64,000 nucleotides of DNA from an uncultured Lachnospiraceae bacterium (GTDB lineage Bacteria; Bacillota; Clostridia; Lachnospirales; Lachnospiraceae), in assembly GCA_947165025.1 (NCBI GenBank), contig CAMUYQ010000003.1, positions 54,747-118,746 on the forward strand. Reading direction: 5' to 3'. The position numbers were made by a program, and so were the translations under genes. Each line of letters starts with the position of its first letter. The stretch's first letter is position 1. Positions 6,925 to 27,151 of the stretch are shown here, in pieces. The notes under the pieces were generated by a model. That model worked only from the letters and a program-made list of their open reading frames with translations, was not told where the DNA came from and did no database searches.

Positions 6925-6982
6925 TTTCCCCCATCGATGGGGGAAAAAATGGGGGAAAAATTGGGGGAAAAATTGGGGGATA
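6925..6982 (+). repeat. GGGGGAAAA array (candidate arm-type recombinase sites), left end of segment 1
   Basis: Perfect palindrome TTTTCCCCC-ATCGAT-GGGGGAAAA, followed by three more GGGGGAAAA-like copies at a 12-bp period. A related array lies at 34455-34492. Confidence 0.5.
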
Positions 6983-6994
6983 AGACATGCTTCT

Positions 6995-7064
6995 TGCATT
7001 TCACGTCAAAAAAAGTGCGTTTCACGTATAATATATAATTATAAGTGGCAATCTTTCCGAAAAT
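6995..7064 (+). promoter_or_regulatory. Class-1 LytTR-type operator plus promoter of the RR/HK operon
   Basis: TGCATTTCACG (6995-7005) and TGCGTTTCACG (7016-7026), starting 21 bp apart. A TCCGAAAA box lies 42 bp after the proximal repeat; a TATAAT at 7027 is an alternative -10. Confidence 0.6.
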
Positions 7065-7852: not shown

Positions 7853-9255
7853 TCGACTATATTGTTGCCAATTTTGCGTCATTCGCTGATGCTTTTACTC
7901 ATTGTCTGGTAGTCATATATATAATCTGTGTGTCTTTTCTGTTATCAGTCTGGATAAAACCGTTTGTTCAAATCCGCAGGGCGTCATCTCTTACCGCGAT
8001 CATATATTTCATTTTCAGATTTATATACTATTTGATACCTGTAGATAGTGATTTTATCAGGGGGATTGCGTTTGGGATCATACCCGTAGTATTCCTTGTT
8101 TCATGGCTTTTGGATAATAAAAGGAATCCGGTCCAGAAACTGTTCCTTTCAATTCTCTATTATCTGATAAGCTGGCTGACATATGAGATTTCAGTGGAGA
8201 TCGGTCTTTTTGAAAGAGATATCATGTACAGATTTGAATGGTATCATTCGGATGCCAATGCCATTGCGATCGAGTTTATCATATGGAATTTGATCGAATA
8301 TGCTTTTGCGGTAGTTATTCTGTATATTTCAGTGCGCCTTATTCAGAAGGCATATATAAGAAAAATGGAAGAATTGTCATGGAAAGAACTGTTGATGCTG
8401 CTAGCCCCGTTCTGGACTATTCTTTTGGTAAAACCAATTATGTTGGCGTATTTCACTCTCTGGATGGATGGTATAGCAAATGGGAGTATAAATGAAAACA
8501 TACCGTCAAGCATTTATCGCCTGGTGTTCTGTGTTCTGTCGCTACTGTCTGTAATTATCATTATTACGCTGTATCAGAGGATCAAAGAGGCCACGGATGA
8601 TAAATATGCAAGACAGTCCCTTGAGAATCAGATCGAGGATATCCGGCGACATATGGGGCAGATAGAGGATATGTATGAAAAGATGAGAGCGATGCGGCAT
8701 GACATGGGCAATCATATGGCTGTGATAGAGGGCCTTGCAGATAAGGGAGAGAAGGATGCCCTGAGTGAGTATATCGGACAGTGGAAAAAGAATTATGATG
8801 AGTCAGGAACACTGGTTAAGACCGGAAATCCGATCATCGATGTTGCAATTTCGGAGTTTGCCGCAAGATTTAAAGAGTCTGACATACCGTTTGAACAGTC
8901 ATTTCAGTATCCCGAACAGCTTACGATCAATCCATTCGATCTGTGTGTTGTGGTAACAAATGCGCTTCAGAATGCATATGAAGCATCTGTAAACACGAAA
9001 ACACCCTCAGTATCACTGACATCTGTTGTCCGTGATCAAACGTTTATCATCAGTCTGAGAAACCATACAGACAACAAAGTGTATATAAATTTCGAAGAAG
9101 ATATACCGGTTTCGTCAAAAAAGGAAGACGGTCATGGGTACGGACTAAAGAATATAAGGACAATCGCCCGTAAGTACAAGGGTGATATCGAAATACGTCA
9201 AGAAGTTGAAAAAGACGGGTATATGTTTGTTCTGAACGTCATGTTTATTGGCTGA
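7849..9255 (+). CDS. AgrC/HPK10-like membrane sensor histidine kinase (GHKL)
   Basis: About six N-terminal hydrophobic helices; H-box MRHDMGNHM; N-box NALQNAYEA; G-box GHGYGLKNI; start overlaps the RR stop (ATGA). Confidence 0.85.
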   Translation: MIDYIVANFASFADAFTHCLVVIYIICVSFLLSVWIKPFVQIRRASSLTAIIYFIFRFIYYLIPVDSDFIRGIAFGIIPVVFLVSWLLDNKRNPVQKLFLSILYYLISWLTYEISVEIGLFERDIMYRFEWYHSDANAIAIEFIIWNLIEYAFAVVILYISVRLIQKAYIRKMEELSWKELLMLLAPFWTILLVKPIMLAYFTLWMDGIANGSINENIPSSIYRLVFCVLSLLSVIIIITLYQRIKEATDDKYARQSLENQIEDIRRHMGQIEDMYEKMRAMRHDMGNHMAVIEGLADKGEKDALSEYIGQWKKNYDESGTLVKTGNPIIDVAISEFAARFKESDIPFEQSFQYPEQLTINPFDLCVVVTNALQNAYEASVNTKTPSVSLTSVVRDQTFIISLRNHTDNKVYINFEEDIPVSSKKEDGHGYGLKNIRTIARKYKGDIEIRQEVEKDGYMFVLNVMFIG

Positions 9256-9257
9256 AC

Positions 9258-9327
9258 CGCAATTCACGACTGAAAAAGTGCGCTTCACGTCGAATCTATT
9301 GTTTATTTCTACAATTTCCCGATACTA
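9258..9327 (+). promoter_or_regulatory. Class-1 LytTR-type operator, copy 2, plus CCCGATAC box
   Basis: CGCAATTCACG (9258-9268) and TGCGCTTCACG (9279-9289), 21 bp apart; CGATA at 9320, 41 bp after the proximal repeat. Confidence 0.55.
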
Positions 9328-9360: not shown

Positions 9361-9429
9361 TGCAATTCACGTCGAAAAAAGTGCATTTCAAGTAATGTGG
9401 GTTTATTTGATGCTGTCCTATTACGATAG
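9361..9429 (+). promoter_or_regulatory. Class-1 LytTR-type operator, copy 3, plus TACGATAG box
   Basis: TGCAATTCACG (9361-9371) and TGCATTTCAAG (9382-9392), 21 bp apart; CGATA at 9424, 42 bp after the proximal repeat. Confidence 0.55.
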
Positions 9430-9574
9430 AACGATTAGATACAGCATCAAATGTGTCAAGTTCGCAGAACTTGACATGTAGCGTCGGCTCTTCGACGAAG
9501 TCGAATCAGGATGAGCCGACGTTCTCGGGTTGCAAGGAAACGGATTTCATAAGAAGAACAGGAGGTTCAGGAAG
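9406..9574 (+). promoter_or_regulatory. Inverted repeat around the putative -10, plus a multi-hairpin GGA-rich 5' leader for the first cluster gene
   Basis: 11-bp inverted repeat TTTGATGCTGT/ACAGCATCAAA (9406-9416 / 9441-9451). Hairpin 9454-9476 (10 bp). Nested hairpin 9482-9521 with unpaired TCAGGAT. Further GGA motifs run up to the SD AGGAGG. Confidence 0.5.
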
Positions 9575-10351
9575 ATGTCAACAATAAGACAAACAGCAGG
9601 CAGTAATTATTTTGATGAGACCTATGGCGGAGGTAGTTCAGGCTATTCCAATGATTTTCTGTCAGGGTTAAGTGTAAATACCAACAGTAATGGCGGCGGT
9701 TCATTCGATCTGGCGGATTATGCCATGATCAAGAACGGATCATACGGCAAGCTTATGAAGGCGTACTACGGACAGGAAAAAGCACAGAAGGCCGTAGAAT
9801 CCAAGGAGAGCACTTCCAAGCTTACACAGATGGCCGGTAATGCCGGAGGAATGGCAAATGCAGCAAAAGCCCTGATGGATGATTCATTATGGCAGAAGAA
9901 GACCATAACGGAGAAGGACGAAAAGACCGGAGAGGAAACGACTAAAGAAGATTATGACTGGAAGGCCATCACAAAGGCTGTTAAGGGATTCATCGAAAAC
10001 TATAACAACACAGTGGCTGGTGCAGGTGAATCCGATACAAAGGGTGTGTTGAGGAATGCTTCCTTCATGGTCAAGACAACGGCGGCATACAAGAAAACAC
10101 TTGAAAAGGCCGGCATCACGATCACAAGCGGAAATAAGCTCGAACTTAACGAGGAAGACCTTAAGAATGCGGACATTTCAACGCTTAAGACACTGTTTAC
10201 GGGTTACAACTCTTTTGCCGACAAGATGGCGACAAAGGGTAACACGATAGCAAACGAAGCTGCAAGTGCCGGCGGAACATATACGAGCAATGGAACGTAT
10301 TCCAAAGCACTGTCACAGATAGTATCGACCAAGATCGATACCAAAGAATAA
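9575..10351 (+). CDS. Short FliD (flagellar cap, HAP2)-like protein
   Basis: Start at ATG 9575 behind SD AGGAGG (the track ORF starts at an upstream TTG). By eye, FIENYNNTV, SLWQKK, GVLRNAS and LEKAGITITSGNKLELNEEDLKNADISTLKTLFTG resemble the Firmicute FliD motifs FVDxYN, LWEEKAK, GLLRND and GITT...GKLxxDExKL...LF. No signal peptide. Confidence 0.45.
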   Translation: MSTIRQTAGSNYFDETYGGGSSGYSNDFLSGLSVNTNSNGGGSFDLADYAMIKNGSYGKLMKAYYGQEKAQKAVESKESTSKLTQMAGNAGGMANAAKALMDDSLWQKKTITEKDEKTGEETTKEDYDWKAITKAVKGFIENYNNTVAGAGESDTKGVLRNASFMVKTTAAYKKTLEKAGITITSGNKLELNEEDLKNADISTLKTLFTGYNSFADKMATKGNTIANEAASAGGTYTSNGTYSKALSQIVSTKIDTKE

Positions 10352-12934: not shown

Positions 12935-13035
12935 TAAACAATTATCTTCAAAATGCCGATATATATTTAAGATAAGTGATAATGTCGCCTGATCAGAAAA
13001 GGAGTTCGGATCAGTATTGTCAAGGAGGATGACAC
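12935..13035 (+). promoter_or_regulatory. Sigma-D/sigma-28-type promoter plus hag-like leader (GGA hairpin + GGA-containing SD)
   Basis: TAAA (12935-12938), 16-nt spacer, GCCGATAT (12955-12962). Hairpin 12989-13014 presents AAGGAG in its loop. SD AAGGAGGA at 13023-13030. Confidence 0.6.
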
Positions 13036-13689
13036 ATGAGCGGGATAAATGCGGTTAATAACGGTAAATCCGGTGAATTTCTACAGGGAATTCAGACGAC
13101 AATAAAGGAAAAACTGAATAATGCTATTGAAGAAGGAGCATTCTCCAACGCATTTGATGAAGGAGTAGCTGCAACCCTTTCAATATCGTCATCCGGGATC
13201 GCTCAGGCTAGTCGGGCAGAAAGAGAAGATATCATTCGACAATCTATAGTCCAGCTGGATGGCGGGTATAGAAAGTTTAATCTTACAGATGAAGAAGCCT
13301 GTATTCTCAAGAGTTTCCGGTTGGAAGAATACTATGATATCCGGAATAGAATGAAGAATGAGGATATTAACGCCTATAATGATCTTTTAAAGTCTGAAGA
13401 GATCGCCGACAAGAACTCCGACCCGAGCGCAAAGTTTAAAGTATATTCAAAAGCATATAACTGGGCTTACGGGGACGTTTTTGACAGAATCCATAAGGAA
13501 AATCCGGAAGTTGATATTTATGTAAGATCACCGGGGACGGAGGAAAATCATAACTATCAAATGAGAAATAACAGAACCTCACTTATTATTTCCACGGATG
13601 AAATAAAACTCCTTCAGTCAAGAAATAACAACGATAAGAAAGCACAGGAAGAACTGTGGAATAGGATCCTGGAAAAGATCCGATCATGA
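13036..13689 (+). CDS. Hypothetical protein (cluster gene 6)
   Basis: Complete 217-aa ORF with a strong SD; no recognisable motif. Confidence 0.65.
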   Translation: MSGINAVNNGKSGEFLQGIQTTIKEKLNNAIEEGAFSNAFDEGVAATLSISSSGIAQASRAEREDIIRQSIVQLDGGYRKFNLTDEEACILKSFRLEEYYDIRNRMKNEDINAYNDLLKSEEIADKNSDPSAKFKVYSKAYNWAYGDVFDRIHKENPEVDIYVRSPGTEENHNYQMRNNRTSLIISTDEIKLLQSRNNNDKKAQEELWNRILEKIRS

Positions 13690-13707: not shown

Positions 13708-13787
13708 TCGGGATATATTAAAGGAAAGCATTAATATCGCTTGATCCGAAAAGGAGTTCGGATTCATATGATCAAGGAGGATATCAC
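13708..13787 (+). promoter_or_regulatory. Second copy of the hag-like leader (GGA hexaloop hairpin + SD)
   Basis: Hairpin ATCCGAA-AAGGAG-TTCGGAT (13744-13763). SD AAGGAGGA at 13774-13781. A degenerate TCGGGATAT box at 13708 has no convincing -35. Confidence 0.5.
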
Positions 13788-14756
13788 ATGAAGGTCAATA
13801 ACACATCCTTTTTTATGAATGATGGCGTATTTGGAACATCGAATACATCGGAGCGTTCAAACAATAATCCATCCAAATCATCCGGAATATCGATAAACGG
13901 CAGTTCTTTTGCCATGCAGAATGATCCCATTGCGGCCAAGCGGGAGGAAGCCCGTAAGAAAGCAATGAAGGTCATCGGGGATGCGTTTGCTAATGACCGG
14001 AAGATTGATGAAGACCTTGATGCAAGAAGCGAGCATATCCGAAAGCTGAAAACTGTTCAGAATGACGCAAATAAAGTGATCAACGAAATAGAATCAGACC
14101 GTGCTGCTCTTCGAGATGAGTATGGTATTGATACGGACAGTCAGGAAGAGAAAGATCTCCAGCTTCTTGAGAAGGAATTCAGGGCACGCCAAAAAGGTTC
14201 TGATGTTCAACTTACAAAGGAGGATATGGAGGAGATCGCTAAGATTAAGGCAAAGGGCCTTACGGAATATCAGAGCAGGTCGATGGAAATGCTTGATTAT
14301 GAGAAACCATATCTTGATGCAGCATATGAGGCTAAAGCCGGTATAGAAGAGGAAAATCTAACCATTGCAGCAATAAAGCGTGAACTTCCGAAGAATGACG
14401 CAATGTTGAAAGCCCAGGATAAAGCCGATGCCATAGAAGATGCTGCATCAAAAGAGATCATGGGGATGCTTGTCGATGAAGCGAAGGAACAAATCGACGA
14501 AGAGGCAAAGGAGGCCGAAGAAAAGGCCAAGGAGAAACAGGAGAAGGAAGAAGAACTCCAGGAGAAGATCGATGCCGCAAGGGAAAGACGTAAGGAAGAG
14601 GAAGAACTCACTGAAGACATCGTGGAATCTGCCCAGGATCTTAATGTTACAACAGCTAACATAAATGATGCACAGAAGGACATTAAGGATATGATGAACA
14701 AACTGGCACTCGTAGAAGAAGATATGAAGGGTGCCGCTGTGGATCAAAAATCATAA
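13788..14756 (+). CDS. Hypothetical coiled-coil-like protein (cluster gene 7)
   Basis: S/N-rich N-terminus, then a long K/E/D-rich helical-looking region; 322 aa. Confidence 0.65.
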   Translation: MKVNNTSFFMNDGVFGTSNTSERSNNNPSKSSGISINGSSFAMQNDPIAAKREEARKKAMKVIGDAFANDRKIDEDLDARSEHIRKLKTVQNDANKVINEIESDRAALRDEYGIDTDSQEEKDLQLLEKEFRARQKGSDVQLTKEDMEEIAKIKAKGLTEYQSRSMEMLDYEKPYLDAAYEAKAGIEEENLTIAAIKRELPKNDAMLKAQDKADAIEDAASKEIMGMLVDEAKEQIDEEAKEAEEKAKEKQEKEEELQEKIDAARERRKEEEELTEDIVESAQDLNVTTANINDAQKDIKDMMNKLALVEEDMKGAAVDQKS

Positions 14757-14793
14757 AGCATATTGATTGGTACTACCATTCAATATAGATCGG

Positions 14794-14824
14794 TCGGGTC
14801 ACGGAAAACGTGGCCCGATTTTTT
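14794..14824 (+). terminator. Intrinsic terminator ending the first transcription block of the cluster
   Basis: 10-bp stem TCGGGTCACG/CGTGGCCCGA (one G-U pair), loop GAAAA, followed by TTTTTT. Confidence 0.7.
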
Positions 14825-14829
14825 GTTTA

Positions 14830-15010
14830 TAGTCGTTTTATGTCATATGATAGTCGATTTTTGAAATATATATAAATATGGGATTAAATTGGTCGATAGA
14901 TATTTCAGATGATTTATTTCTATAAGTGTATAAAGAATTTGCTAAGGAAAGCACCCCAGAGGATCCATGGAGAGGATCGTAATTATAATGAGGTGCTTTT
15001 ACTTTTTTAA
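14830..15010 (+). promoter_or_regulatory. Regulatory cassette: class-2 LytTR-type operator + TAAA-N15-GTCGATAG promoter + GGA leader with terminator-like hairpin
   Basis: TAGTCGTTTTA (14830) and TAGTCGATTT (14851), 21 bp apart. TAAA at 14873-14876 and GTCGATAG at 14892-14899. GCTAAGGAAAGC at 14941. Hairpin AAAGCACC/GGTGCTTT (14948-14999) followed by a T-run. Confidence 0.55.
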
Positions 15011-15056
15011 CAGGGGGAGTAGTAAGCCGGCAAGGGGAAACCGGAAGAAAAAACTT

Positions 15057-15764
15057 ATGAAAATTTGGATCTGTGACGGAGAGAAAAGTGATATTGATGA
15101 GTTGAAGAGCCTTATCGATTGTTACAAAAAGAAAAAAGATATAGGGAATGTTGAAGTAAGAGTGTTTGGTGATGCTGCTGAACTTATACAGGAAATGATT
15201 GACGGTGATGCTGCAGATATTATTATTTTAGATGCAATGATAGCGGAAAATGGAACTGAGGATCTTCTTAAAAAAATACGAACTAGGAATTCAGATTCAA
15301 AAGTCATTCTGCTTATTTCGGAAATGAGACATGTACTTGACGGATATCAGATGAAAACAGATTGGATTCTTTTGAAAGAAAACCCCTCTGACAGATTTTT
15401 TGAATGTATGGATAGGCTGTGTTCAGACATCCGGGAGAAACGAAAAATCCTTTCCTTGTCGTGTGTAGAGGGAGATTATGTTTTCAGCCGATCGAAAATA
15501 CTGTTTATAGAGAGTGAAGGTCATCGCTGTACAATTCATGAATTGAATGGAGATTATCACATATACCGTCGCCTGGATGAACTCGAAGAGAGAATAGATT
15601 CGCCGTATTTTATACGAATTCATCAAAGCTATCTAGTCAATGTCAAATACATACAACGTATAAGCAATTACGAACTAACAATGGCAGACGGTTGTATCTT
15701 GCCAGTATCTAAGGCGAGATATAAACAGGTTCAGCGTGAATACGCAGAAAATAAAATGAATTGA
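15057..15764 (+). CDS. Orphan LytTR-family regulator with a divergent receiver-like N-terminal domain
   Basis: C-terminal LytTR signature FIRIHQSYLVNVKYI. The N-terminal REC-like fold has ICDGE in place of the DD/DE pocket, and IIILDAMI. Start moved to ATG 15057 because the track start 14967 lies inside the leader hairpin. Confidence 0.75.
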   Translation: MKIWICDGEKSDIDELKSLIDCYKKKKDIGNVEVRVFGDAAELIQEMIDGDAADIIILDAMIAENGTEDLLKKIRTRNSDSKVILLISEMRHVLDGYQMKTDWILLKENPSDRFFECMDRLCSDIREKRKILSLSCVEGDYVFSRSKILFIESEGHRCTIHELNGDYHIYRRLDELEERIDSPYFIRIHQSYLVNVKYIQRISNYELTMADGCILPVSKARYKQVQREYAENKMN

Positions 15765-15766
15765 TA

Positions 15767-15910
15767 TAGTCGTTTTATGCATTATATGATCGATTCAGGA
15801 CATTCCTATAATATGAATTGCGAAATGTGCCGATAACTATATCAGATAATTGTATAAGCTAAGGATAGCAGCTGTGGTCAAAGGAATGAACTTTGATGAC
15901 AGTCTTTTTT
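15767..15910 (+). promoter_or_regulatory. Regulatory cassette, copy 2 (class-2 operator, GCCGATAA box, GGA leader, terminator-like hairpin)
   Basis: TAGTCGTTTTA at 15767 and TGATCGATTCA at 15787. GCCGATAA at 15829-15836. GCTA-AGGA-TAGC at 15858-15869. Hairpin 15872-15902 with GGA at its apex, then TCTTTTTT. Confidence 0.55.
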
Positions 15911-15926
15911 ATAAGTGGGGGGTAGT

Positions 15927-16502
15927 ATGAACATTTTTTTTGAGAAACCTGAAGAACAGAAGATAACCAGCCAAAGGGAGCTGGTGGAGCATTTACTCAA
16001 TAATTCCGGTGATGTTGATGAGATGTCGGAGGAAAATCGCAGAGAGATGGACGCCCGGATAATGGCAAAGCTTAAATCCGGAAAAAAGCTTTCGCAAAAG
16101 GAACTGGATTATCTTAGGAGAACAAACCCCATACTTTATGCTCAGGCAATGAGAGTACAGAGAATGGCGGAGGCGCTCGAAGAACAGCTTAAGCATGCGA
16201 GAAGCAAGGAGGAAGTTAACCAGATCTTTACTACTGCGTTGTCCGGTATATCCAAGAATGATCCTGACCGTGAATACCTTGTGGCTTCTTTCAATCGTAT
16301 TTCTACAGAGTTTCGCAAATCTAAAATGTATAATAAGCTGCTGACCACCACTGAGGAAGCAAGGAAGAAAAAGAAACAGGTAGATCCGGATAAGGATCTG
16401 TTTAAGGAAGATAATGATGACAAAGACGGGTTTGATCTGAGCAGTTGGAGTCCTTTACGTGAGTTGTATGAACAGATGCCATCTTTTGTGGCCGGAGCGT
16501 GA
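15927..16502 (+). CDS. Hypothetical helical protein (cluster gene 9)
   Basis: ATG 15927 behind a GGGGGG SD (the track ORF starts at an upstream GTG inside the SD); K/E-rich, no motif recognised. Confidence 0.65.
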   Translation: MNIFFEKPEEQKITSQRELVEHLLNNSGDVDEMSEENRREMDARIMAKLKSGKKLSQKELDYLRRTNPILYAQAMRVQRMAEALEEQLKHARSKEEVNQIFTTALSGISKNDPDREYLVASFNRISTEFRKSKMYNKLLTTTEEARKKKKQVDPDKDLFKEDNDDKDGFDLSSWSPLRELYEQMPSFVAGA

Positions 16503-16518
16503 CGATTCTTTGCTATTC

Positions 16519-16660
16519 TTGATGATTTATATGGACGATAGTCGTTTCATGGCATTTATATAATACAGACTTATAACATGTCGATAATAGTATCAGACAA
16601 CTGAATAAGCAAGGGATTGCGGCTGTGTTCAAAGGATTGAATTTTGGAGACAGTTTTTTT
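16519..16660 (+). promoter_or_regulatory. Regulatory cassette, copy 3
   Basis: Half-sites TTGATGATTTA (16519, degenerate) and TAGTCGTTTCA (16539). GTCGATAA at 16580-16587. GCAA-GGGA-TTGC at 16609-16620, which covaries with GCTA...TAGC. Hairpin 16623-16653 followed by TTTTTTT. Confidence 0.55.
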
Positions 16661-16683
16661 ATACGAAATAAGGGGGATTAAGT

Positions 16684-17607
16684 ATGACAGGAACAGCAGT
16701 AGCATCATGTTTCAATTACAGCAGTTACGCAAGTTATCAGACTTCAAGTAAGAAGACGGGTGAGGTATTGTTTTCCGATAGTATTGATGTCAATAGTGAC
16801 AAGGTGAAAAAAGAGGAGTCCCAGAGGGGATCTGTTATGGAGGAATACTATGCAAGAAAGCCTCAGTACAAAGAAAGGGCAAAAGAACGAGTTGATGGCG
16901 GTTATGTTGTTCTAAAGTGTGCCGGGATTTCCACCGAGGACATGGAGAACATGTCCATGAATGAGTTTAAAGATGTGATGAGCAAGGTTATTGCCGGGAT
17001 TCCGCATCATGCCACAAGACCATATGATGAAGAAACGGTACTTATTTCCGAAGAAGGTTGGGAAAACATGAAGAAGGATCCTGATTATGCAGCATATGTG
17101 GTGGGTCTGCTTCAGGAAGACAGATCCTTTGCAAATCCGTTCTTTGCGCTGGGGGATAAAGGAAGTTATATTGTGCAGCATTTTGGCGCATCTCCGGAGG
17201 ACTATCATGGAGTCGGATTTAGCAAGATATACGGTGGTACTGCTGCGGGAGCACGTTCGATGTATAACTCGGCGAAGGCAGGAGGAATTGAGACGCGTGG
17301 CCCACAGGCGGATCTTCAGCCTCCGTCAGACTATAATCTTTGGGAAGAGAGAAGAAAAGCAAAGAGGCGTAAAAGAAAAGAGCAGCTTGATGAAGAAATC
17401 ATGTCTCAATATTATCAGAAGAAGCATTTGAACGATCTGTATGAAAAGAAACTTTACGAGAACAAGGAACTTGCACGATCTCGCAGTGTGGCTGAAATGA
17501 TAGGATCACGGAGCAATACATCACATGCGCCGAAGCTTTCTATGGCAAGCGGTACGGCGTTTTATGAAGCGGCGTTTATGACATCTGATATAACTGAAAT
17601 GTTTTAG
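16684..17607 (+). CDS. Hypothetical protein, paralogue family member (cluster gene 10)
   Basis: LISEEGWENMKKDPDYAAYVV ... IVQHFGASPED aligns by eye with the next gene and with 12342-12923; basic KRRKRK segment near the C-terminus. Confidence 0.65.
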   Translation: MTGTAVASCFNYSSYASYQTSSKKTGEVLFSDSIDVNSDKVKKEESQRGSVMEEYYARKPQYKERAKERVDGGYVVLKCAGISTEDMENMSMNEFKDVMSKVIAGIPHHATRPYDEETVLISEEGWENMKKDPDYAAYVVGLLQEDRSFANPFFALGDKGSYIVQHFGASPEDYHGVGFSKIYGGTAAGARSMYNSAKAGGIETRGPQADLQPPSDYNLWEERRKAKRRKRKEQLDEEIMSQYYQKKHLNDLYEKKLYENKELARSRSVAEMIGSRSNTSHAPKLSMASGTAFYEAAFMTSDITEMF

Positions 17608-17618
17608 GAGCATCTTGT

Positions 17619-18254
17619 ATGAACAATATGATCACAATCAGCAGTATGAGTCGCGCATTCCGACAGACACCGGTTCGCAGACCAAGTAAAAATGATGTAA
17701 GAGGAGCATCATTTGCGGACTGCGTTCAAAAAGAAGCGGATAAACAGAACATTCCGAATAACGAAACTATGCGTAGTGTAGACGAATATCGGACATACCT
17801 GAACGATAAGCTTCAGAATCTCTCATTTGATTCATCAAACAGAATGGACACCACGATGGTATCCTTATCGGATGCTGGTATTAATCGTATGATGAAGGAT
17901 CCCGAATATGAGAAATGGGTTATCTGTCAGGTTAGTTCCATGATTTCAACAGATGATCCGTTCAGCGGTATGGCAGGCGGAAAGTTTATCATAATGCGCT
18001 TTGGAGAGAGAGAATCAGATCTTAGTGTAACAATAGAGAGAGCCGGTTTTTCAAACGGACAGGACAGTATGATGCCAAAGACTCATAAAGATGAAGATGA
18101 GAATTTCTGGAACAGACGGCAAAACCGGCTTGAAGAGCAGATTGATGTAAGTGAGGAGATTCGTGAAAGAGAAGCGGAAGGTCTTTCAATAATGATCAAT
18201 CCGTTTTTGGATATAAGCGGGAAAAAAGCCATTGAGGGTAATACCGCCAACTGA
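17619..18254 (+). CDS. Hypothetical protein, paralogue family member (cluster gene 11)
   Basis: SLSDAGINRMMKDPEYEKWVI ... IIMRFGERESD; starts 11 nt after the upstream stop codon. Confidence 0.65.
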   Translation: MNNMITISSMSRAFRQTPVRRPSKNDVRGASFADCVQKEADKQNIPNNETMRSVDEYRTYLNDKLQNLSFDSSNRMDTTMVSLSDAGINRMMKDPEYEKWVICQVSSMISTDDPFSGMAGGKFIIMRFGERESDLSVTIERAGFSNGQDSMMPKTHKDEDENFWNRRQNRLEEQIDVSEEIREREAEGLSIMINPFLDISGKKAIEGNTAN

Positions 18255-18256
18255 AA

Positions 18257-18403
18257 TAGTCGTTTTATGTCATATTATAGTCAGTTTATGCAGAGGGTGT
18301 TTAGTGGTTATACAGACACGACGATAAAACTTTCAGATCAATATAAGAGCTAAGGATAGCGGCTGTGTTCAAAGGAGTGAACCTTGATCACGGTCGTTTT
18401 TTT
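18257..18403 (+). promoter_or_regulatory. Regulatory cassette, copy 4
   Basis: TAGTCGTTTTA (18257) and TAGTCAGTTTA (18278), 21 bp apart. GACGATAA at 18320-18327. GCTAAGGATAGC at 18349-18360. Imperfect hairpin 18359-18395 followed by TTTTTTT. Confidence 0.55.
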
Positions 18404-18488
18404 GTAATCAAAAATAAGATACCGCTCGGACCTTTCCGGAGAGCGGTGCGGCTCTGACTGACAGATGAGTCGCGGAAAGGGGGACAAT

Positions 18489-20678
18489 ATGTCATTTGCA
18501 GTACAAACAAGTTTTAATCAAACGTATCAGTATGGGAGCTTTGGCTCTAAATCTAATCGTGGAGAGGATTCTATAGGAAGAGAATTCATGGGAAGCGCTA
18601 CTTCACGAACCACTTCATCTGATAAGGGTGAAAATATCGGCGTTATGACGATTGGTAACATAGGGTATATTGCCAAATATGCGGACTCATCGACAGAAGA
18701 AGATCCTATCATCAAAGTCGGAGATTATGAGGTCAGGGTAAATGATGTTGATCCGCATAATGCTACTAAGGTAGAGATGTTTGCGCTGATGAGCTATATG
18801 GATGATAAAGGTCTCATCGAGAACACCGGCATGAAATCATTTGGAAAAATGACAGCGTATGGGGCACAGGCGGAATATAACGGATTTTGTAGTGATCTAT
18901 CCGATCCTGAGCTGGCATGGACAAAGAACAGAGACTGGACAGCGATACTGCAAAACGCAAAAGAAACATTTTTTGGTATTCCGCAGGCATATAATCAAGG
19001 GCTTAACTGCGAGAACATTGTTGCCGGACTTGAGCGTTGGGCAGAGACAAGGTGTGATAAAGGCGAGAATATAATTACAGAGGTATCCGGTGAGAGTGAA
19101 GTGTCAAGTGATATGGATGCCACATGTATTCCGGTTGTCGGCAAAGGATATGGCGATCCGGCCGCATACACCAGGTGTATTACAGCTAATATCAAGACCA
19201 AGGAAGCCTATGTACAGCAGAATTCCAACGGAGAAGTGATTTATTCGTACAGGGAGACGGAGCAGTCATTCAATATCATCATCAATTCTGACGGTAAGGA
19301 TAAAACATACACGATAACCGGTATTGACGAAAACGGCGAGGAGTTTGAAAGAGCGTTTGATCCATATGATCTGGATCCTAAAGATATGGATTATCCCGAG
19401 TTCGCTGCGATGTGCATGTACATCAGACAGACGGATGAAACAGCTGATCTGATAGCTAGCAGCTATTTTACGGATACAAGCTATTTCGACGGGATATTTG
19501 ACAGAGGTGATCGTGTCAGCCTGCTGGGACAGTATGCTGAAGAGTATGGTAATTCTGAGCCGTCCCTTGCAAGCCTTGCGAATAAGATATTTGAAGCTAT
19601 AAGTACATTTTTCGACAGAGCAATGAGGGGAAACGGATTCTCTGAAGAAGCATTCTCACTCCTGTTTGCGGACCTTGATGATATCGAGACGCAGGAAAAG
19701 ATCAGTGCGCTCAAAAACGGATATACCTATTCTGACAACACAACCGATCCGGTATCCGAAACAATTGTTTCAAAACACAATCAGTACACGGATCCTGATA
19801 CCGGTGAGATTGTTCCGGTGAATATCAGATATATCACAGCCTATACTGATGAGGGGATCTCCTGTAAGGAAATAAAAGATGAAGGGGGAAAAATATCACA
19901 GAGAGATTTATGGAGTCTATCTTATGATTCTCCGGACAGTTATGAAAAGGTTCAGGAGTTCTTAAAGAGTTTTTCGAAGGATCAGAATCTTACATTTGCT
20001 CCACAGGAGAAGTTTTGGAAGGATTTCATGAAGGATGATTTTGATATTGACGGATTCCGTGCATATTACGATTCCACCGATAACGGAAAGATAAATGTAG
20101 AGAAGGGATTACAGGAGGGCAAGAATCTGGGAGATCTCTTGACCGAGCCTTTTGCCGAATATATCAACAACACTCATTTTATCGGCAAGGTATTTACGGA
20201 GCAGGAAATGTGGGATAACTGGAATGCCCAAATAGAAGCAAACCAGAGGACTTTGGGCTTAAACTGTACAGGAGATATAGCATCCACAGATTCCAGGGAT
20301 AAGGTCCGTGAAATGAGAGAACAGGCATTTTTGGGGATTGGAAAGAATGCTTCGGAGAACGTAAAAAAAGCCTGGCTGGAGGCTGCAGATGAAATTGGAA
20401 TGGACGGACAGGGATTATCGGCTACCGGAACACTTGATCATATCCCGCAGTTTATGATACAGCGATTTATCCGCCAGTATAACGGATATGATCCGGATGA
20501 TGTTCTGGGGAGTACGGTAAGCTCGGCCATCCAGGCGGCTCAGGACGCTATTTATGCTCTTGACCATCCTCTCGAGCCTGATACAACAAGGAGTTCGAAA
20601 GTACTTGCGGCGAGGGAGAAAGAGAGAGCTTTCTATGAGCGTTTTATAGAAAAACTCATGGGAATGAGAGCGCTCTAA
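18489..20678 (+). CDS. Large hypothetical protein (729 aa from ATG 18489; cluster gene 12)
   Basis: ATG 18489 behind SD AAAGGGGGA (the track ORF starts 24 nt upstream); no TM helix, signal peptide or catalytic motif recognised. Confidence 0.65.
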   Translation: MSFAVQTSFNQTYQYGSFGSKSNRGEDSIGREFMGSATSRTTSSDKGENIGVMTIGNIGYIAKYADSSTEEDPIIKVGDYEVRVNDVDPHNATKVEMFALMSYMDDKGLIENTGMKSFGKMTAYGAQAEYNGFCSDLSDPELAWTKNRDWTAILQNAKETFFGIPQAYNQGLNCENIVAGLERWAETRCDKGENIITEVSGESEVSSDMDATCIPVVGKGYGDPAAYTRCITANIKTKEAYVQQNSNGEVIYSYRETEQSFNIIINSDGKDKTYTITGIDENGEEFERAFDPYDLDPKDMDYPEFAAMCMYIRQTDETADLIASSYFTDTSYFDGIFDRGDRVSLLGQYAEEYGNSEPSLASLANKIFEAISTFFDRAMRGNGFSEEAFSLLFADLDDIETQEKISALKNGYTYSDNTTDPVSETIVSKHNQYTDPDTGEIVPVNIRYITAYTDEGISCKEIKDEGGKISQRDLWSLSYDSPDSYEKVQEFLKSFSKDQNLTFAPQEKFWKDFMKDDFDIDGFRAYYDSTDNGKINVEKGLQEGKNLGDLLTEPFAEYINNTHFIGKVFTEQEMWDNWNAQIEANQRTLGLNCTGDIASTDSRDKVREMREQAFLGIGKNASENVKKAWLEAADEIGMDGQGLSATGTLDHIPQFMIQRFIRQYNGYDPDDVLGSTVSSAIQAAQDAIYALDHPLEPDTTRSSKVLAAREKERAFYERFIEKLMGMRAL

Positions 20679-20684
20679 AACTTC

Positions 20685-20766
20685 GCCAATATATTCAAGT
20701 CGAAATTTAATAAGAGTTATGGAAAGTGGCTGTGTTCAAAGGATTGAACTTTGGACACAGCTTTTT
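20685..20766 (+). promoter_or_regulatory. Partial regulatory cassette, copy 5 (GCCAATAT box, GGA-apex terminator-like hairpin)
   Basis: GCCAATAT at 20685-20692 with no TAAA at the proper spacing and no clear LytTR repeats. Hairpin GCTGTGTTCAAAGG/CTTTGGACACAGC (20729-20761) followed by TTTTT. Confidence 0.4.
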
Positions 20767-20821
20767 CGTACCAAACAAAGCATAAACAGACAGGAAAACA
20801 AGGACTGGAGGGTAGTGATTA

Positions 20822-22135
20822 ATGAAAATTGCAGACAGTACAGTAAACATGATGTCGGGGAGAAACTATACTCAGACCGGGATGAAGAACGGGGTGGCCG
20901 GTTATGAAAGCAGCTTCACGGGAATGATCAACAGATATAACACCCATAGGGATAATGCTCTTGCAAAGGACACTTATCAATCCGGCAAGGATAATGGTGG
21001 GATGGGTTCTTACAATATGGATGATATCGGGTATTTCAAGGGACTCGGAAAAATCACATCTGGAAGCCTATTTGGAGCGGGAGCAGGTGCGTCAGCTTTT
21101 CAAAACAACACTCTGGCCGCGATGTTTAAGAGATTCGCATCTTTTGGAATGATAGGCGGCGCGGCTATTGGCGGATACTCCTCGAGTATGGTCACGTATT
21201 CCGAAACCGAAGAGACAGGGTTTCATGCGTGCGGTAAGGCATGTACAGAGGACGGCCGGACGATCGATTTTAATGTAAATATCCTGATGAGCAGGAGCTA
21301 TATGGAATATATGAACGTAAGGATCCCGACTATGGCTGATGCCCTGTTTGATCCGCTTATTGTCAATATAGGATCTGATACAGCGGATGTGCGGGATCAG
21401 ACTTTTAAGTTTGATCTTGATGCCGACGGGTGTGAGGATGAAATATCCATGCTTGGTAAGTGCTCGGGATTTCTTGCTTTGGATAAAGACGGAAACGGAA
21501 AAATCGATGACGGCAATGAATTGTTCGGAACAAAGAGCGGTGACGGATTCGGTGAGCTTCGGGAATATGACAGTGATGGTAATGGATGGATCGATGAGAA
21601 CGACGAGATATTCTCAAAACTTAAGGTATGGTGCAAGGATGAGAACGGTAATGACGTACTCATGGATCTGAAGGAGGCAGACATCGGAGCTATATATCTG
21701 GGAGAACAGCGGACGGAGTTTACACTTGGCGGGGCAGACGGTTACAGAGACGGAGTGATCAGATCCACAGGGGTATTTCTTCGCGAGAGTGGAGGCGCAG
21801 GTACAATACAGCATGTGGACTTGTCCATGAAACAAAACGGTCTGGGTACAAAGGTCAGCGGTGATGATACAGTTATGGATGTAAGTACATCCGACAACCG
21901 AAATCAGAGCAATGCCACCAGGAGACAGGAAGAAAGACGGCGGCAGGAAGCAAAGGCAAGAAGGAGAAAAGCTGATGATAAGGCAGCTGCGGATGCCATG
22001 TACAGAAGACAGATGGAAAATAGGAAATACATGAATAAGCTTCAGGAGAGGCGATTTATGGAGAGAAAGGAATACCATGAGGAACTGAGCGAGGAGCAGA
22101 TGGAGAAACTGCTTGAAGATCAGGAAGCAGTATAA
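20822..22135 (+). CDS. Hypothetical protein with EF-hand-like DxDxDG calcium-binding repeats and a basic C-terminal tail (cluster gene 13)
   Basis: DLDADGCEDEI, LDKDGNGKIDDGNELFG, YDSDGNGWIDENDEIF, CKDENGNDVL; C-terminal RRQEERRRQEAKARRRK; no signal peptide. Confidence 0.7.
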   Translation: MKIADSTVNMMSGRNYTQTGMKNGVAGYESSFTGMINRYNTHRDNALAKDTYQSGKDNGGMGSYNMDDIGYFKGLGKITSGSLFGAGAGASAFQNNTLAAMFKRFASFGMIGGAAIGGYSSSMVTYSETEETGFHACGKACTEDGRTIDFNVNILMSRSYMEYMNVRIPTMADALFDPLIVNIGSDTADVRDQTFKFDLDADGCEDEISMLGKCSGFLALDKDGNGKIDDGNELFGTKSGDGFGELREYDSDGNGWIDENDEIFSKLKVWCKDENGNDVLMDLKEADIGAIYLGEQRTEFTLGGADGYRDGVIRSTGVFLRESGGAGTIQHVDLSMKQNGLGTKVSGDDTVMDVSTSDNRNQSNATRRQEERRRQEAKARRRKADDKAAADAMYRRQMENRKYMNKLQERRFMERKEYHEELSEEQMEKLLEDQEAV

Positions 22136-22231
22136 CAATCCGGTTTTAAATAATCCCTTCTTCATATATGCCGACTTCGTCAAAAGGCGGAGCCGGCATA
22201 GCTTTATATGGGAATAAGGATTATTTCGATA

Positions 22232-24625
22232 TCAATGCCCTATATCGTCAAACAAATCATATACCGGTGTGCGTGTAGGCTCCGGATCGTAATCGTAGTC
22301 ATAATCATAATCAGTACGGTCATCGGCTGAGTGCGAGGCAGTATAATCCCTTTCGGTTATTCCTGCATCAGATCTCGAGAGCGTCTCCTCTTTAACCGGA
22401 GTCTTCGGTTCAAGAGCCTTAAGAGCTGCTATATACGGTTCTTGCGTAAAGCTTCGATCCATTGCAAGTTTAGAGTCACGGTCGATCATTTTGATATTTC
22501 GATATTCGCCTGTAACGCAGTTCAAGTTAACGGAAGCTGCCTTCAACAAGCCTTCCAGAATACGGAGCTGATGCAGATAATCATCGTAATTGTTCTCTGA
22601 CAGCCCAAGATTAAGAGCCTTCTGCTTCAGCTCTTTGTATCTTAGGATCTGCATTGTTGTTTCCATATCGACAGACTGAATTATCTCACTAAGAGCATTT
22701 GTTTTTTCTTCCTCAGTCAGTTGGGGGTCCTGCTCGCTGTCTTTGTTGTGAAGATGTCTGTATTTTGCTTCGAGATAACGTTCCTCTTTATTTTTCTCAT
22801 ATTCAGCATAGGATATAAGAACTTCCGGCCTTTGAAGGTCCTTGTTACTTAAGAATCTGATGATCTGCTCGGCTTCAGCAAACGTAAGCTCATTATACGG
22901 ACAGGTGAGTTTCCATCTGTCAGAGTTAGTGTTTAACAAGTTGTAAAGATCGACTTTCTGCTTGCTTGTCATAGGCTCCAGCAGTGCATGCTCATGGCGT
23001 ATTGTCGACTTATCGGGGTATGTGAGCAGTCGATCGATCTGAGAAAGATCAAAGCCTTTAAGTACACGCTCTAAGCTTTGAAGACCCCTGATCACAGATT
23101 CTTTTTCCTGATAGCACTTTACCGAACCCTCCAGTTTATCGATATACTTCTTAAGATTACTCCAGGTCTTGCCTATTTCCCGGAATCGACTTCTGATATC
23201 AGCATGAGTGTATAAACCAAGAAGGTTTGCCGCATACATGGATCGCTGCATCCTCAGGATCTTCTTGTCTATATCAGAGATCACAGGATGAGATCTGAGG
23301 AGTTCCTCGCGATCTTTATCTTTAAATAGGGACATGATTGTATCAATGATCAGCTCTTTGAAGTATTTAAGAACTTTGATGGCATAAAGAAATACTATCT
23401 CCAGATTCGATCTCCGGCAGCCGTTTTCATTGTATCTGCTTATATTCATGTTGAATTCGTTTGTGCGTGGATCTTTTGATATATAATCGATGCGATCGAT
23501 CCTGTACTGCTGTTCAGCCCTCTTTTCCTCCTGAAGAACCTGTCTTTCAGGAATCGGTTTGCCGCCATTATCAAATCCTATGCCGGAATCCCAGCCCATT
23601 CGCTGGCATATGGCTTTTCTCATATATTTTTCACCAAGTGCTATATCCCTTACCTGGAACGGCAAAATGCTGTCTTTCATATGAAGATCATGGCATATGA
23701 ACAGAACATGATCAGGTGTCTGCGAAATGTCATATCTGCTGATCCCGGTTTTCGGATCCGTGTATTGCTCCGACATGAACTCCATAAATCCCTGCCAGCT
23801 TGTAACACCGTGTTCCTTGCATTCCGCTAGAGCGCTATCAATATCTTGTCTGATGCGGTCTTTATTGCTCGTACCGTCATGACTCTTTGCTCTTACATAT
23901 TCTTCAGCCACATCCGGGACATCCGGCGTATGATTTTTATGATCGATATCCGCATCAAGCAGTATGGGAAGATCATGTGCGAGGCTTATCTCGTCATTGA
24001 GATTGCGGAGCTTACGTCGTAGTGCTTTGTTCATGCATATTTTATGAGTGCCGTCCATAGAGAATGCACAGACAACGATATGGTTATGGACATGATCCGT
24101 ATTCATGTGTGTTGATACAACACATTGAAATCCGGGAAAAGCTCTTTTGGCATATTCAACCCCGATCCTGTGAACAAGAAGCGGATCCGGAGGTGTCCCG
24201 CCATGTTCTTTACCGGGAAATGACTGTATAAAGTGTTCAGCATCTATCGGTTTCTTTTCGACGGTAATGCGTCTGCCAGTCTTCTTGTCTGTATATGTAG
24301 CGTACTTGGCGCTTCCTCTGCGCCTTCTGCCATTACCGTTTTCTTCATACTTATACTTGGACGCTGCAAAGTCAACAGAGGCCATTTCTTCGATACAGTT
24401 GATGCCGGTAACAAGGACTGTCTTATCACCGTCAAGTTCCATAACCGTCTTTTCGAGATTTTTAGCATACTTAAGAACAACATCGAAGTTGTCATCTTCG
24501 ACTACGGTGTCCTTCGCTTCATATGACTTATCCGTCAAAGTGTTCTTCGTTTCATCGTTAACGTAGTTGATGCATGAAGCAACGCCTTTGGAACTATGTA
24601 TTGGGATGTTTTTAAGTATAGCCAT
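22232..24625 (-). CDS. Relaxase/mobilisation nuclease-domain protein (MobA/VirD2 superfamily) with a long C-terminal extension
   Basis: N-terminal relaxase region with His triad HMNTDHVHNHIVV; 797 aa; convergent with the unknown-function cluster. Confidence 0.8.
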   Translation of the reverse strand: MAILKNIPIHSSKGVASCINYVNDETKNTLTDKSYEAKDTVVEDDNFDVVLKYAKNLEKTVMELDGDKTVLVTGINCIEEMASVDFAASKYKYEENGNGRRRRGSAKYATYTDKKTGRRITVEKKPIDAEHFIQSFPGKEHGGTPPDPLLVHRIGVEYAKRAFPGFQCVVSTHMNTDHVHNHIVVCAFSMDGTHKICMNKALRRKLRNLNDEISLAHDLPILLDADIDHKNHTPDVPDVAEEYVRAKSHDGTSNKDRIRQDIDSALAECKEHGVTSWQGFMEFMSEQYTDPKTGISRYDISQTPDHVLFICHDLHMKDSILPFQVRDIALGEKYMRKAICQRMGWDSGIGFDNGGKPIPERQVLQEEKRAEQQYRIDRIDYISKDPRTNEFNMNISRYNENGCRRSNLEIVFLYAIKVLKYFKELIIDTIMSLFKDKDREELLRSHPVISDIDKKILRMQRSMYAANLLGLYTHADIRSRFREIGKTWSNLKKYIDKLEGSVKCYQEKESVIRGLQSLERVLKGFDLSQIDRLLTYPDKSTIRHEHALLEPMTSKQKVDLYNLLNTNSDRWKLTCPYNELTFAEAEQIIRFLSNKDLQRPEVLISYAEYEKNKEERYLEAKYRHLHNKDSEQDPQLTEEEKTNALSEIIQSVDMETTMQILRYKELKQKALNLGLSENNYDDYLHQLRILEGLLKAASVNLNCVTGEYRNIKMIDRDSKLAMDRSFTQEPYIAALKALEPKTPVKEETLSRSDAGITERDYTASHSADDRTDYDYDYDYDPEPTRTPVYDLFDDIGH

Positions 24626-25428: not shown

Positions 25429-26490
25429 ATGATGAATGTAACAAGTAATATGTCAAAGGATGATCTGAGTAGGATAAGGATTGCGATCGATACCGGAAAG
25501 GCTTATACGAAGTTCTGCTACAGGGATAAGGAAGGTAACGATGTATGCGACAAGTTCGTATCAGCCATCGGGCTGGTATCGAAGAACCCCATGCAGGCCA
25601 CAGATAATAAGGTGTTCAGATGTGATCTGTTAAAGGATCCTTACTATATCGATATTCCGGAACTGTGTGATATAACCACGACAAGCGATAACGAGAAGAA
25701 CGGGACCGGGTTGTCGGTAAGTGATAACAACCATGACAGGGAGATCGTAACACTCGGGGCCTGCCTGTCGATCGTAAAGGTGATGAAAAAACACGGAGTA
25801 AACCGTGCATGCGTTTATGTTGCGATCGGTGCGCCTATCACGGAATATGAAAAGATCCGGAAGGAAAGAAATGCATACTTCAACAGTATCCTTCCGACAG
25901 ACAGGTGGGTGGAATGCAGATATGAAGGCAGGATATATCAGTTCATTGTCAAAAGAAGTGTTGTGTGTCCTGAAACTGTTGCGGCGTTTGTTTATAACAC
26001 CGGCAATGACAAGGGAAACATGCTCCTTGTCGATATCGGAGGGAATAACATCCAGTATGTCTGCTCCACAAACGGTGTGATCAATTTTGACCGTGCAAAG
26101 ACGTTTACGGCAAAAGGCGGAGTTAACACATTTGCCCGTCGGATCCGTATGTTGATGGAACAGAATCAGATCGAACCGGTCGGTACCGTTGTTGAGATCA
26201 CCGAGTGGCTTGCCAATCCCAAATCAATCCCCGGAAAGTACGGAAACAACTGGAAAGAGCGCTTCAAGGAACTTGTTGATGCGGAGAAGAAAACATATTT
26301 TTCGCAGATCACGGGGATATTGGATACAGTGACCGGAAACTTCAGGGAAGAAATGCTACGGGGCTATAAGGTCTGCTATACCGGCGGTGGTTCGGTTCTC
26401 TTTAAGAGTGAGATCAAGGTCAGCGGTGGGATCACGTTTGAAGGGAACGAATACGCAAACGTATTGGGATTTTACAAGATGCTCTCGTAA
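25429..26490 (+). CDS. parM: ParM/StbA-like actin-fold segregation ATPase
   Basis: Actin-fold phosphate and adenosine motifs: IAIDTGKAYTKF, VDIGGNNIQY, YTGGGS. Confidence 0.65.
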   Translation: MMNVTSNMSKDDLSRIRIAIDTGKAYTKFCYRDKEGNDVCDKFVSAIGLVSKNPMQATDNKVFRCDLLKDPYYIDIPELCDITTTSDNEKNGTGLSVSDNNHDREIVTLGACLSIVKVMKKHGVNRACVYVAIGAPITEYEKIRKERNAYFNSILPTDRWVECRYEGRIYQFIVKRSVVCPETVAAFVYNTGNDKGNMLLVDIGGNNIQYVCSTNGVINFDRAKTFTAKGGVNTFARRIRMLMEQNQIEPVGTVVEITEWLANPKSIPGKYGNNWKERFKELVDAEKKTYFSQITGILDTVTGNFREEMLRGYKVCYTGGGSVLFKSEIKVSGGITFEGNEYANVLGFYKMLS

Positions 26491-27025: not shown

Positions 27026-27151
27026 CAAAAAGGGAGCCCTCCCCGACCAAAGTTTGGACTCCCTTAAGTGCAACAGACACAGAGTGCCTGCATGGTTATA
27101 ATACTCTACCTTGCAGCACTCTGTAAATAGCCGAGATTGAGAGGTGAGAGT

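Follow-up and report, generated by a model that had tools for sequence, protein, structure and literature searches.

A two-hairpin GGA leader RNA with a terminator-like stem, repeated before genes of a Lachnospiraceae mobile element

What is a short RNA leader doing in front of five genes of one mobile element, and what could act on it? The question arises from a 64,000-nt stretch of DNA of an uncultured Lachnospiraceae bacterium (contig CAMUYQ010000003.1; the whole stretch is called the window below), in which five genes that lie on an integrated mobile element of this rumen or gut bacterium are preceded by a common 5' leader. Read 5' to 3', the repeated block consists of a CGATAA-type element, TATCAGA, about 12 A/U-rich bases, hairpin 1 (GCUA-AGGA-UAGC or a variant, with 3-4 bp and an ANGGAN loop), hairpin 2 (12-14 bp with the apex GUUCAAAGGANUGAAC), 5-7 U residues, a G-rich Shine-Dalgarno (SD) sequence, and an ATG. 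We call the copies A to E in the order of the genes that they precede, which start at 15057, 15927, 16684, 18489, and 20822. The module is very probably real, a structured RNA in the leader whose second hairpin resembles a terminator. The leader is a genuine, unnamed cis-regulatory RNA family that behaves like an attenuator or leader under protein control and is not a demonstrated member of either the CsrA targets or the ANTAR targets. The best explanation overall, to which we give a rough probability of 0.45, is that it would serve as the cis-acting leader of one mobile gene cluster, with a CsrA-type protein setting the fate of the transcript.

A preliminary description of this DNA had counted five copies of the module, one of them a variant at 14948-15008. 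A family-wide covariance model (R2), built from 94 aligned hits and run over the whole window with filters off, bears this count out with exactly five matches, all on the + strand. The matches at 15852, 16603, 18343, and 20710 score 64-73 bits (in descending order 73.5, 67.7, 64.4, and 64.4; E = 1e-14 to 1e-17). Copy A matches R2 at 14935-15002 with 20.5 bits (E = 0.005) and is consequently a true but divergent family member, as its description as a variant had implied. The orthologous LytTR gene in related islands has a canonical leader instead (L045:6743, L047:5869, and L144:4125). A repeat search of the window returns a single 80-nt family with four copies at 63-80% identity, located before 15927, 16684, 18489, and 20822, to which the region upstream of 15057 aligns more loosely. 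With 0-1 mismatch allowed, the apex motif is present at four sites in the 64 kb and at no other; its confinement to these sites, together with the five + strand model matches, rules out a chance repeat. RNAfold reproduces both hairpins and folds hairpin 2 as previously described, and the sequences quoted in that description are each found at the positions given for them. Hairpin 2 is followed by T-runs of 6, 7, 7, and 5 in copies B, C, D, and E, and then by the G-rich SD sequences and ATGs of their genes. All genes between 9.5 and 22.1 kb lie on the + strand.

Covariation shows that this RNA is folded. In alignment A3 (86 distinct sequences), 91% of the cells are paired, a share that falls to about 40% once the partners are slid against each other. 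Double-change cells number 241, compared with 86 ± 7 in shuffled alignments, and none of 500 shuffles reach this number. The outer-stem pairs exhibit up to six pair types each, and G-U pairs are frequent among them (one pair has 48 U-A and 33 U-G examples). Because of these G-U pairs, and because the minus strand scores at noise level with R2, the helix must act in the + strand transcript. A DNA palindrome or operator is ruled out by the many G-U pairs and by scores that appear on the + strand only. Hairpin 1 reads GCU-AWGGAN-RGC across the 86 sequences. Its 5' arm was set by the search pattern, and its free 3' arm shows only transitions that keep the pairing (R opposite U, G opposite C, and Y opposite G), with rare variants that are compensated (GCAA/UUGC, GUUA/AAAC, and GCC/GGC). 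The earlier claim that TA-to-AT swaps among the window copies are compensatory stands for one U-A to A-U swap (16609 versus 15858 and 18349). That swap is thin evidence alone, and it is some 90 relatives that supply the real covariation.

The module has no name that we could find, in agreement with the preliminary description. The sole match to Rfam 15 in the window at the gathering threshold is a tRNA (6720-6803), and accepting E values up to 10 in the region 14700-20900 adds only chance-level matches of 12-23 bits to eukaryotic RNAs and PhrS. A megablast search of 14700-22200 against plasmid and phage collections returned no similar DNA, and a literature search found no description of the leader or of DUF6033. 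A viral origin is ruled out by a pattern scan of IMG/VR, which gave two matches, neither of them confirmed by the covariance model.

Relatives are nevertheless numerous. In a scan of 185,579 species genomes, the apex motif was matched at 83 loci. Of these, 12 have the whole module, and all 12 are from metagenome-assembled genomes of rumen or gut Lachnospiraceae. The remainder are coincidences within coding sequences; about 65 of the 83 hits were discarded as chance on the basis of context and the covariance model. A first model (R1), made from 15 distinct copies, found more diverged copies in the same loci. Searching metagenomes for the two-hairpin pattern returned at least 120 loci, about 85 of which, among the matches listed, have a model-confirmed copy; the carriers among these listed matches are mostly from rumen, caecum, and human gut. 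Roughly 20 of the first 100 metagenome pattern loci are chance hits, and 16 of the 100 have no R2 match. The chance hits of the two scans include hisF coding sequence. From the matches listed, we collected 87 distinct leaders (the denominator of the counts below) and about ten more through R2, giving at least ~95 versions. Related loci have up to three leaders each, and every copy is then followed by an SD sequence and a conserved open reading frame (ORF). Among the matches listed, 65 of 82 leader ORFs are homologues of the island genes, some with only 25-50% identity, and it follows that the leader was kept while the proteins diverged. One related locus (L204) has a public gene call of 64 amino acids at 9795-9989 that runs across the LytTR box, promoter, and leader (model match at 9911-9972). 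This is probably a miscalled ORF.

The promoters in front of the leaders are likely to be of the sigma-28/SigD type (TAAA/TTAAG-N16-GCCGATAW), as judged by consensus only. An exact CGATA lies 13-33 nt upstream of hairpin 1 in 61 of the 87 leaders, where the commonest octamer is GCCGATAT (16 leaders), followed by GACGATAA (6) and GTCGATAA (5). A TTAA(G) element is found 16 nt upstream of the -10 element, with T-T-A-A occupying positions -22 to -19 when counted from the C of CGATA. The family thus shows the sigma-28 pattern TAAA-N15/16-GCCGATAW, with weak -35 elements in the window, and its promoters match the Butyrivibrio fibrisolvens sigma-28 consensus TAAA / MCGATAa (PMC3720852). The module keeps a fixed position relative to this -10 element. 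These promoter-like elements upstream and the SD sequences downstream place the module where it had first been described, between a promoter and an SD. Copy E may depend on read-through from 18489-20678, since it has only GTCGAAAT at 20699 and no good -35 element. In copies A-D, a conserved T(A/T)TCAGA follows the -10 element by 3-4 nt (14902-14908, 15840-15846, 16591-16597, and 18331-18337), and TATCAG is enriched across the family. This sequence probably marks the region in which transcription starts.

A further layer of control is suggested by paired ATAGTCGTTTTATG repeats in front of copies A-D. The two repeats are 21 bp apart, lie 39-40 bp upstream of the -10 element, and begin directly after the stop codon of the preceding gene. 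Paired repeats at 21-bp spacing are the layout of sites for LytTR regulators of the AgrA type, and the LytTR protein encoded at 15057-15764 is the likely reader of these ATAGTCG repeats, as judged by analogy. Boxes of the ATAGTCGTTTTATG type are present in related loci as well (L045, L047, and L136). The window also contains a second and different repeat pair, GCAWTTCACGTC ... GTGCRYTTCACGT, likewise 21 bp apart (6996-7036, 9259-9299, and 9362-9402), which occurs once upstream of the LytTR-kinase operon at 7100-9255 and twice upstream of gene 9530. This pair may serve the first LytTR regulator both for autoregulation and as a target site, a reading that would suggest a two-tier LytTR cascade.

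If transcription starts at these promoters, the polymerase soon meets hairpin 2. This hairpin has a median stem of 13 bp and a median stability of -14.6 kcal/mol, and in all 87 leaders the 8 nt that follow the stem include at least four U residues. Because a U-tract follows it, hairpin 2 has the form of an intrinsic terminator inside the leader. The anatomy is that of a terminator or attenuator, with a G+C-based stem and a direct U-tract between an inferred promoter and an ORF, and it recurs in every relative, which upholds the first description of the hairpin as terminator-like. A simple terminator scan of the window detects copy E alone, missing copies A-D because their stems contain a mismatch.

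The top of hairpin 2 can pair in two ways, either as the inner part of the long stem or as a mini-hairpin, UUCAA-[WGGA]-UUGAA, that is designed like hairpin 1. The apical mini-hairpin can form with at least 3 bp in 80 of the 87 leaders, and many relatives have its 3' partner twice (UUGAA-AG-UUGAA). It is kept through a symmetric change from UCAA-UGGA-UUGA to UCA-UGGA-UGA (L204, L171, and L129), and also in L141, where UCAA/UUGA has become AUUA/UAAU (AUUA-ACGGAA-UAAU). Its 5' arm (UUCAA) is also the top of the terminator 5' strand. At the other end, 62 of the 87 leaders have a terminator helix that continues for 3 bp or more within the 3' arm of hairpin 1 (YRGC with GCYR before the U-tract), and pairing at the two variable positions of this extension totals 121, compared with 105 ± 3.8 after tail shuffling. 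The two mini-hairpins occupy both ends of the terminator 5' strand and compete with the terminator helix in most relatives. Within the window, the overlap between hairpin 1 and the terminator is 0-2 nt, being clear in copy A and amounting to one or two bases in copy D.

These folds also bear on a simpler account with no dedicated regulator, in which hairpin 2 merely terminates the gene before it, lies directly behind the promoter of the following gene, and is leaky for transcripts that begin there, and the GGA and AAGGA sequences are 30S standby or stabiliser sites or partners of the U-tract. Such an arrangement would fit the absence of a separate terminator between the stop codons and the next promoters, apart from one at 14792-14820, and the degenerate promoter of copy E. 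It would also fit predicted lowest-energy folds, in which AAGGA often pairs with the U-tract, and the independence of hairpin 1 and the terminator in copies B, C, and E. However, an ordinary terminator needs no invariant loop, and the apex UUCAA-WGGA-UUGA and hairpin 1 persist at 25-50% protein identity while the stem below varies freely. The fixed position of the module relative to the -10 element and the preserved distance of 18-20 nt between the GGAs are likewise not expected of a plain terminator, and we consider this account unlikely.

The preserved GGA distance would suit a dimeric RNA-binding protein. In 79 of the 87 leaders the GGAs are 18-20 nt apart, and each can be displayed in an A-N-GGA-N loop on a stem of 3-6 bp, which supports the initial emphasis on GGA in loops. 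One CsrA dimer bridges sites about 10-63 nt apart, and GGAs in ANGGAN loops at such a spacing have the geometry described for CsrA/RsmE sites. The leader therefore has two sequence features of a CsrA target, GGA in the A-N-GGA-N loop of a short hairpin and two such sites at a distance that a dimer can bridge. CsrA becomes the first candidate because csrA of Firmicutes is a sigma-28-linked late flagellar gene that motile Lachnospiraceae carry. In these motile bacteria, csrA adjoins flagellar genes (PMC3720852). By this analogy, the odds that CsrA is the ligand of the leader are a little short of even, and the proposal that the regulated step is termination is more tentative still. As for the SD itself, copies C, D, and E have a GGA in that region, but copy B does not.

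Known CsrA-controlled leaders offer a close, incomplete parallel. The hag leader of Bacillus subtilis, the fliC leader of Clostridioides difficile, and the flaA leader of Campylobacter jejuni also combine a sigma-28/SigD-type promoter with two GGAs about 20 nt apart, the upstream GGA being displayed in a short A(N)GGA(N) hairpin loop. The fliC site BS1, TGACAAGGATGT, resembles the GGA hairpins described here (PMC8523840), as do the two GGA stem-loops of hag (PMC13443453). Unlike in the flagellin leaders, the second GGA is on the tip of a terminator-like hairpin with a U-tract next to it rather than in the SD, which lies a further 10-110 nt away, and the genes are mobile-element genes of unknown function rather than flagellins. 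E. coli pgaA, where CsrA promotes Rho-dependent termination, provides a different comparison, in that a GGA-binding protein that remodels the leader may alter termination here too, although termination in pgaA works through an exposed rut site and the leader has a hairpin and U-tract terminator.

A second type of leader in the same element lacks the terminator. It occurs at 12961-13039 and 13713-13791 (and also at L025:214, L025:966, and L109:2470) and has a perfect sigma-28 -10 element, GCCGATAT (at 12955), an AAGGAG hexaloop hairpin, and a AAGGAGGA SD 23 nt downstream. By analogy, this is the hag-type layout of the CsrA-repressed hag leader. The leader of gene 9530 (9400-9545) has other hairpins after an ACGATAG element, one of which displays AUCAGGAUGA, and it may be a third GGA-bearing type.

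The paired loops can also be read as the target of a different protein. ANTAR targets are defined by two hexaloop hairpins with A1 and G4, the second of which overlaps a terminator (PMC8934654). The two mini-hairpins of the leader are about 7-9 nt apart, and their A-W-G-G-A-N loops have the dual-hexaloop sequence. An ANTAR-type or island-encoded antiterminator protein might therefore stabilise both hairpins and block the terminator. The A1 and G4 rule and the position of the second hairpin inside the terminator (PMC8934654) are consistent with this scheme, as is the occurrence of the leader, among the matches listed, with this gene cluster only, which would be expected of a dedicated regulator. 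The scheme is also consistent with the lack of any known function for most of the cluster proteins. In most members of the family, the mini-hairpins and the terminator are mutually exclusive, as they are in the targets of EutV, NasR, and AmiR. In contrast to ANTAR targets, the leader has an invariant GGA, which ANTAR sites do not need, and its hairpin 1 also overlaps the base of the terminator, an overlap that is absent from window copies B, C, and E. The island proteins scanned include no cognate ANTAR-domain regulator or other known RNA-binding domain, the only regulators found there being LytTR proteins, and the terminator-less hag-type leaders at 12961 and 13713 fit CsrA better. An antiterminator of this kind is thus an unlikely reader of the leader, comparable in our estimation to the plain terminator.

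Yet another possibility is that the ~65-nt terminated transcript is itself the main product and titrates CsrA as a miniature of the CsrB/RsmZ decoys, with read-through into the gene being secondary. Like these decoy small RNAs, the module has GGA-loop hairpins and ends in an intrinsic terminator. This one island has five copies and related loci have up to three, every copy with its promoter, two GGA hairpins, and terminator, and the C. jejuni flaA mRNA has been reported to titrate CsrA (PMC4894983). Unlike CsrB/RsmZ, however, each RNA has two sites only and is not free-standing, always being followed by an SD and a conserved ORF. Its lowest-energy fold often pairs the first GGA with the U-tail and leaves the second partly inside the stem. 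We regard a decoy as the least probable of these alternatives, and a very unlikely one.

Several observations weigh against CsrA and against control of termination. Copies B, C, and E lack the overlap between hairpin 1 and the terminator, and when both mini-hairpins are forced in these copies a 6-bp stem still forms beside the U-tract, which makes the logic of antitermination weak for them. The SD of copy B has no overlapping GGA, and the SD distance, taken to the start codon, ranges between 14 and 135 nt. The invariance of GCTAWGGA and TCAAWGGANTGA is inflated, since the patterns used for retrieval fix these bases for most relatives; in about 20 unbiased copies, found by models or protein homology alone, the GGAs are kept and the flanks are kept in most. 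No csrA, fliW, fliA, or flagellin gene was found in the window or in 203 fetched loci (tblastn was used for CsrA and flagellin), and a SigD fragment used as query matched only the housekeeping sigma gene at 60287-61411. A literature search found no precedent for an intrinsic terminator controlled by CsrA, and we know of none. Confinement of the leader to one mobile cluster would suit a dedicated factor encoded by the element no less than a host regulator that acts globally. With no csrA in these loci and the leader restricted to one cluster, a dedicated element-encoded binder is a serious rival to CsrA.

With CsrA as the preferred candidate, the following sequence of events can be proposed. 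Transcription would begin at the sigma-28/SigD-type promoter, with the LytTR-type repeats upstream probably bound by the cluster's own LytTR regulator, and the RNA would start about 0-15 nt before hairpin 1. The second GGA would emerge 18-20 nt after the first, on the tip of the 12-14 bp G+C-based hairpin, with the SD 10-110 nt beyond. A dimeric RNA-binding protein, most likely the host CsrA of the flagellar FliW-CsrA circuit, could bind both GGA loops as the RNA emerges and stabilise the two mini-hairpins against formation of the complete terminator helix, shifting the balance between termination and read-through. The bound protein could also reach a GGA-containing SD and affect translation. 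Expression of the cluster would then be tied to the late flagellar regulon of the host. A bolder version, which we think unlikely, has CsrA or an equivalent GGA-loop binder acting as an antiterminator that clamps the two ANGGAN mini-hairpins, the cluster being wired into the host FliA-FliW-CsrA checkpoint and its proteins perhaps leaving through the flagellar type III apparatus. If true, CsrA would have a new way of acting, and the cluster proteins would be flagellum-coupled cargo of a new class.

The region that carries the leaders is an integrated mobile (mobilisable) element flanked by ordinary chromosomal genes, and its features are collected in Table 1. About a dozen of its proteins have no informative Pfam, NCBIfam, or PHROG match; scans of the island proteins against these databases returned LytTR, DUF6033, and weak FliD_C and FapA matches only. 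A few N-termini of cluster proteins, read by eye, show no obvious signal peptide. The 437-aa protein at 20822-22135, behind copy E, is assigned to Pfam PF26745 'SPM' in precomputed annotation, its residues 196-277 match the self-processing module of Neisseria FrpC (6sjw, E = 4e-6), and it has more than 4,000 metagenome relatives. On this similarity, it may be an exported, self-cleaving protein. Related loci adjoin polyvalent proteins typical of conjugative elements (YodL, LPD16, and DUF4316 domains), and the elements that bear the leader cluster in rumen and gut Lachnospiraceae are integrative, mobilisable, or conjugative. The flanks of the element (2654-6586, 45056-46516, and 52708-55913) are rich in second-messenger genes, which encode GGDEF-EAL and PAS-GGDEF proteins, a cNMP-binding protein, and a PAS-adenylate cyclase. 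They are compatible with, and no proof of, a motile or lifestyle-switching host.

Table 1. The five leader copies and other features of the element, with positions counted from the first base of the window
Feature	Position	Strand	Description
Copy A, upstream repeats	14829-14863	+	Direct repeats ATAGTCGTTTTATG / ATAGTCGATTTTTG, 21 bp apart, LytTR-type site
Copy A, -10 element	14892-14899	+	Sigma-28-like GTCGATAG
Copy A, hairpin 1	14941-14952	+	GCTAAGGAAAGC; GCUA-AGGA-AAGC, 3 bp, ANGGAN loop
Copy A, hairpin 2	14948-15008	+	Divergent; base helix AAAGCACC/GGUGCUUU shares bases with the hairpin 1 3' arm; U-tract 14997-15008
Copy A, apical hairpin	14962-14978	+	Part of hairpin 2; loop AUGGAGA
Copy B, upstream repeats	15766-15800	+	ATAGTCGTTTTATG and degenerate ATGATCGATTCAGG, 21 bp apart
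Copy B, -10 element	15829-15836	+	Sigma-28-type GCCGATAA; then conserved TATCAGA 15840-15846, probable start region
Copy B, hairpin 1	15858-15869	+	GCTAAGGATAGC; GCUA-AGGA-UAGC
Copy B, hairpin 2	15871-15903	+	Apex GGUCAAAGGAAUGAAC; U-tract 15905-15910; 67.7 bits
Copy C, upstream repeat	16538-16551	+	ATAGTCGTTTCATG; degenerate partner ~20 bp upstream, 16518-16531
Copy C, -10 element	16580-16587	+	GTCGATAA
Copy C, hairpin 1	16609-16620	+	GCAAGGGATTGC; GCAA-GGGA-UUGC, compensatory U-A to A-U swap
Copy C, hairpin 2	16621-16655	+	U-tract 16654-16660; 64.4 bits
Copy D, upstream repeats	18256-18290	+	Direct repeats ATAGTCGTTTTATG / ATAGTCAGTTTATG, 21 bp apart
Copy D, -10 element	18320-18327	+	GACGATAA
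Copy D, hairpin 1	18349-18360	+	GCTAAGGATAGC; GCUA-AGGA-UAGC
Copy D, hairpin 2	18360-18396	+	Pair C18360-G18396 uses last base of hairpin 1; U-tract 18397-18403; 73.5 bits
Copy E, -10-like element	20699-20706	+	Degenerate GTCGAAAT at usual family distance from hairpin 1; no good -35
Copy E, hairpin 1	20716-20727	+	GTTATGGAAAGT; weak GUUA-UGGA-AAGU, with G-U, U-G, and U-A pairs
Copy E, hairpin 2	20728-20762	+	14 uninterrupted bp; U-tract 20762-20766; 64.4 bits
Orphan LytTR response regulator gene	15057-15764	+	LytTR domain 4e-21; behind leader copy A
tRNA	6720-6803		One end of element
Four 12-nt tandem units	6938-6983		TGGGGGAAAAAW; after tRNA
LytTR response regulator and GHKL kinase operon	7100-9255		
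MobA/VirD2 relaxase	22232-24625	-	
Weakly actin-like protein	25429-26490		
Tyrosine integrase	27137-28270		Far end of element

The leader thus adds an unnamed cis-regulatory RNA family, with about 95 distinct versions, that is abundant in rumen and gut metagenomes, and it opens a way into a large cluster of proteins whose functions are not known. It poses the question of whether a GGA-loop binder such as CsrA controls an intrinsic terminator. The mobile element that carries it probably has a layered circuit of LytTR activator, sigma-28-type promoter, and GGA leader, through which it may borrow the flagellar checkpoint of its host.

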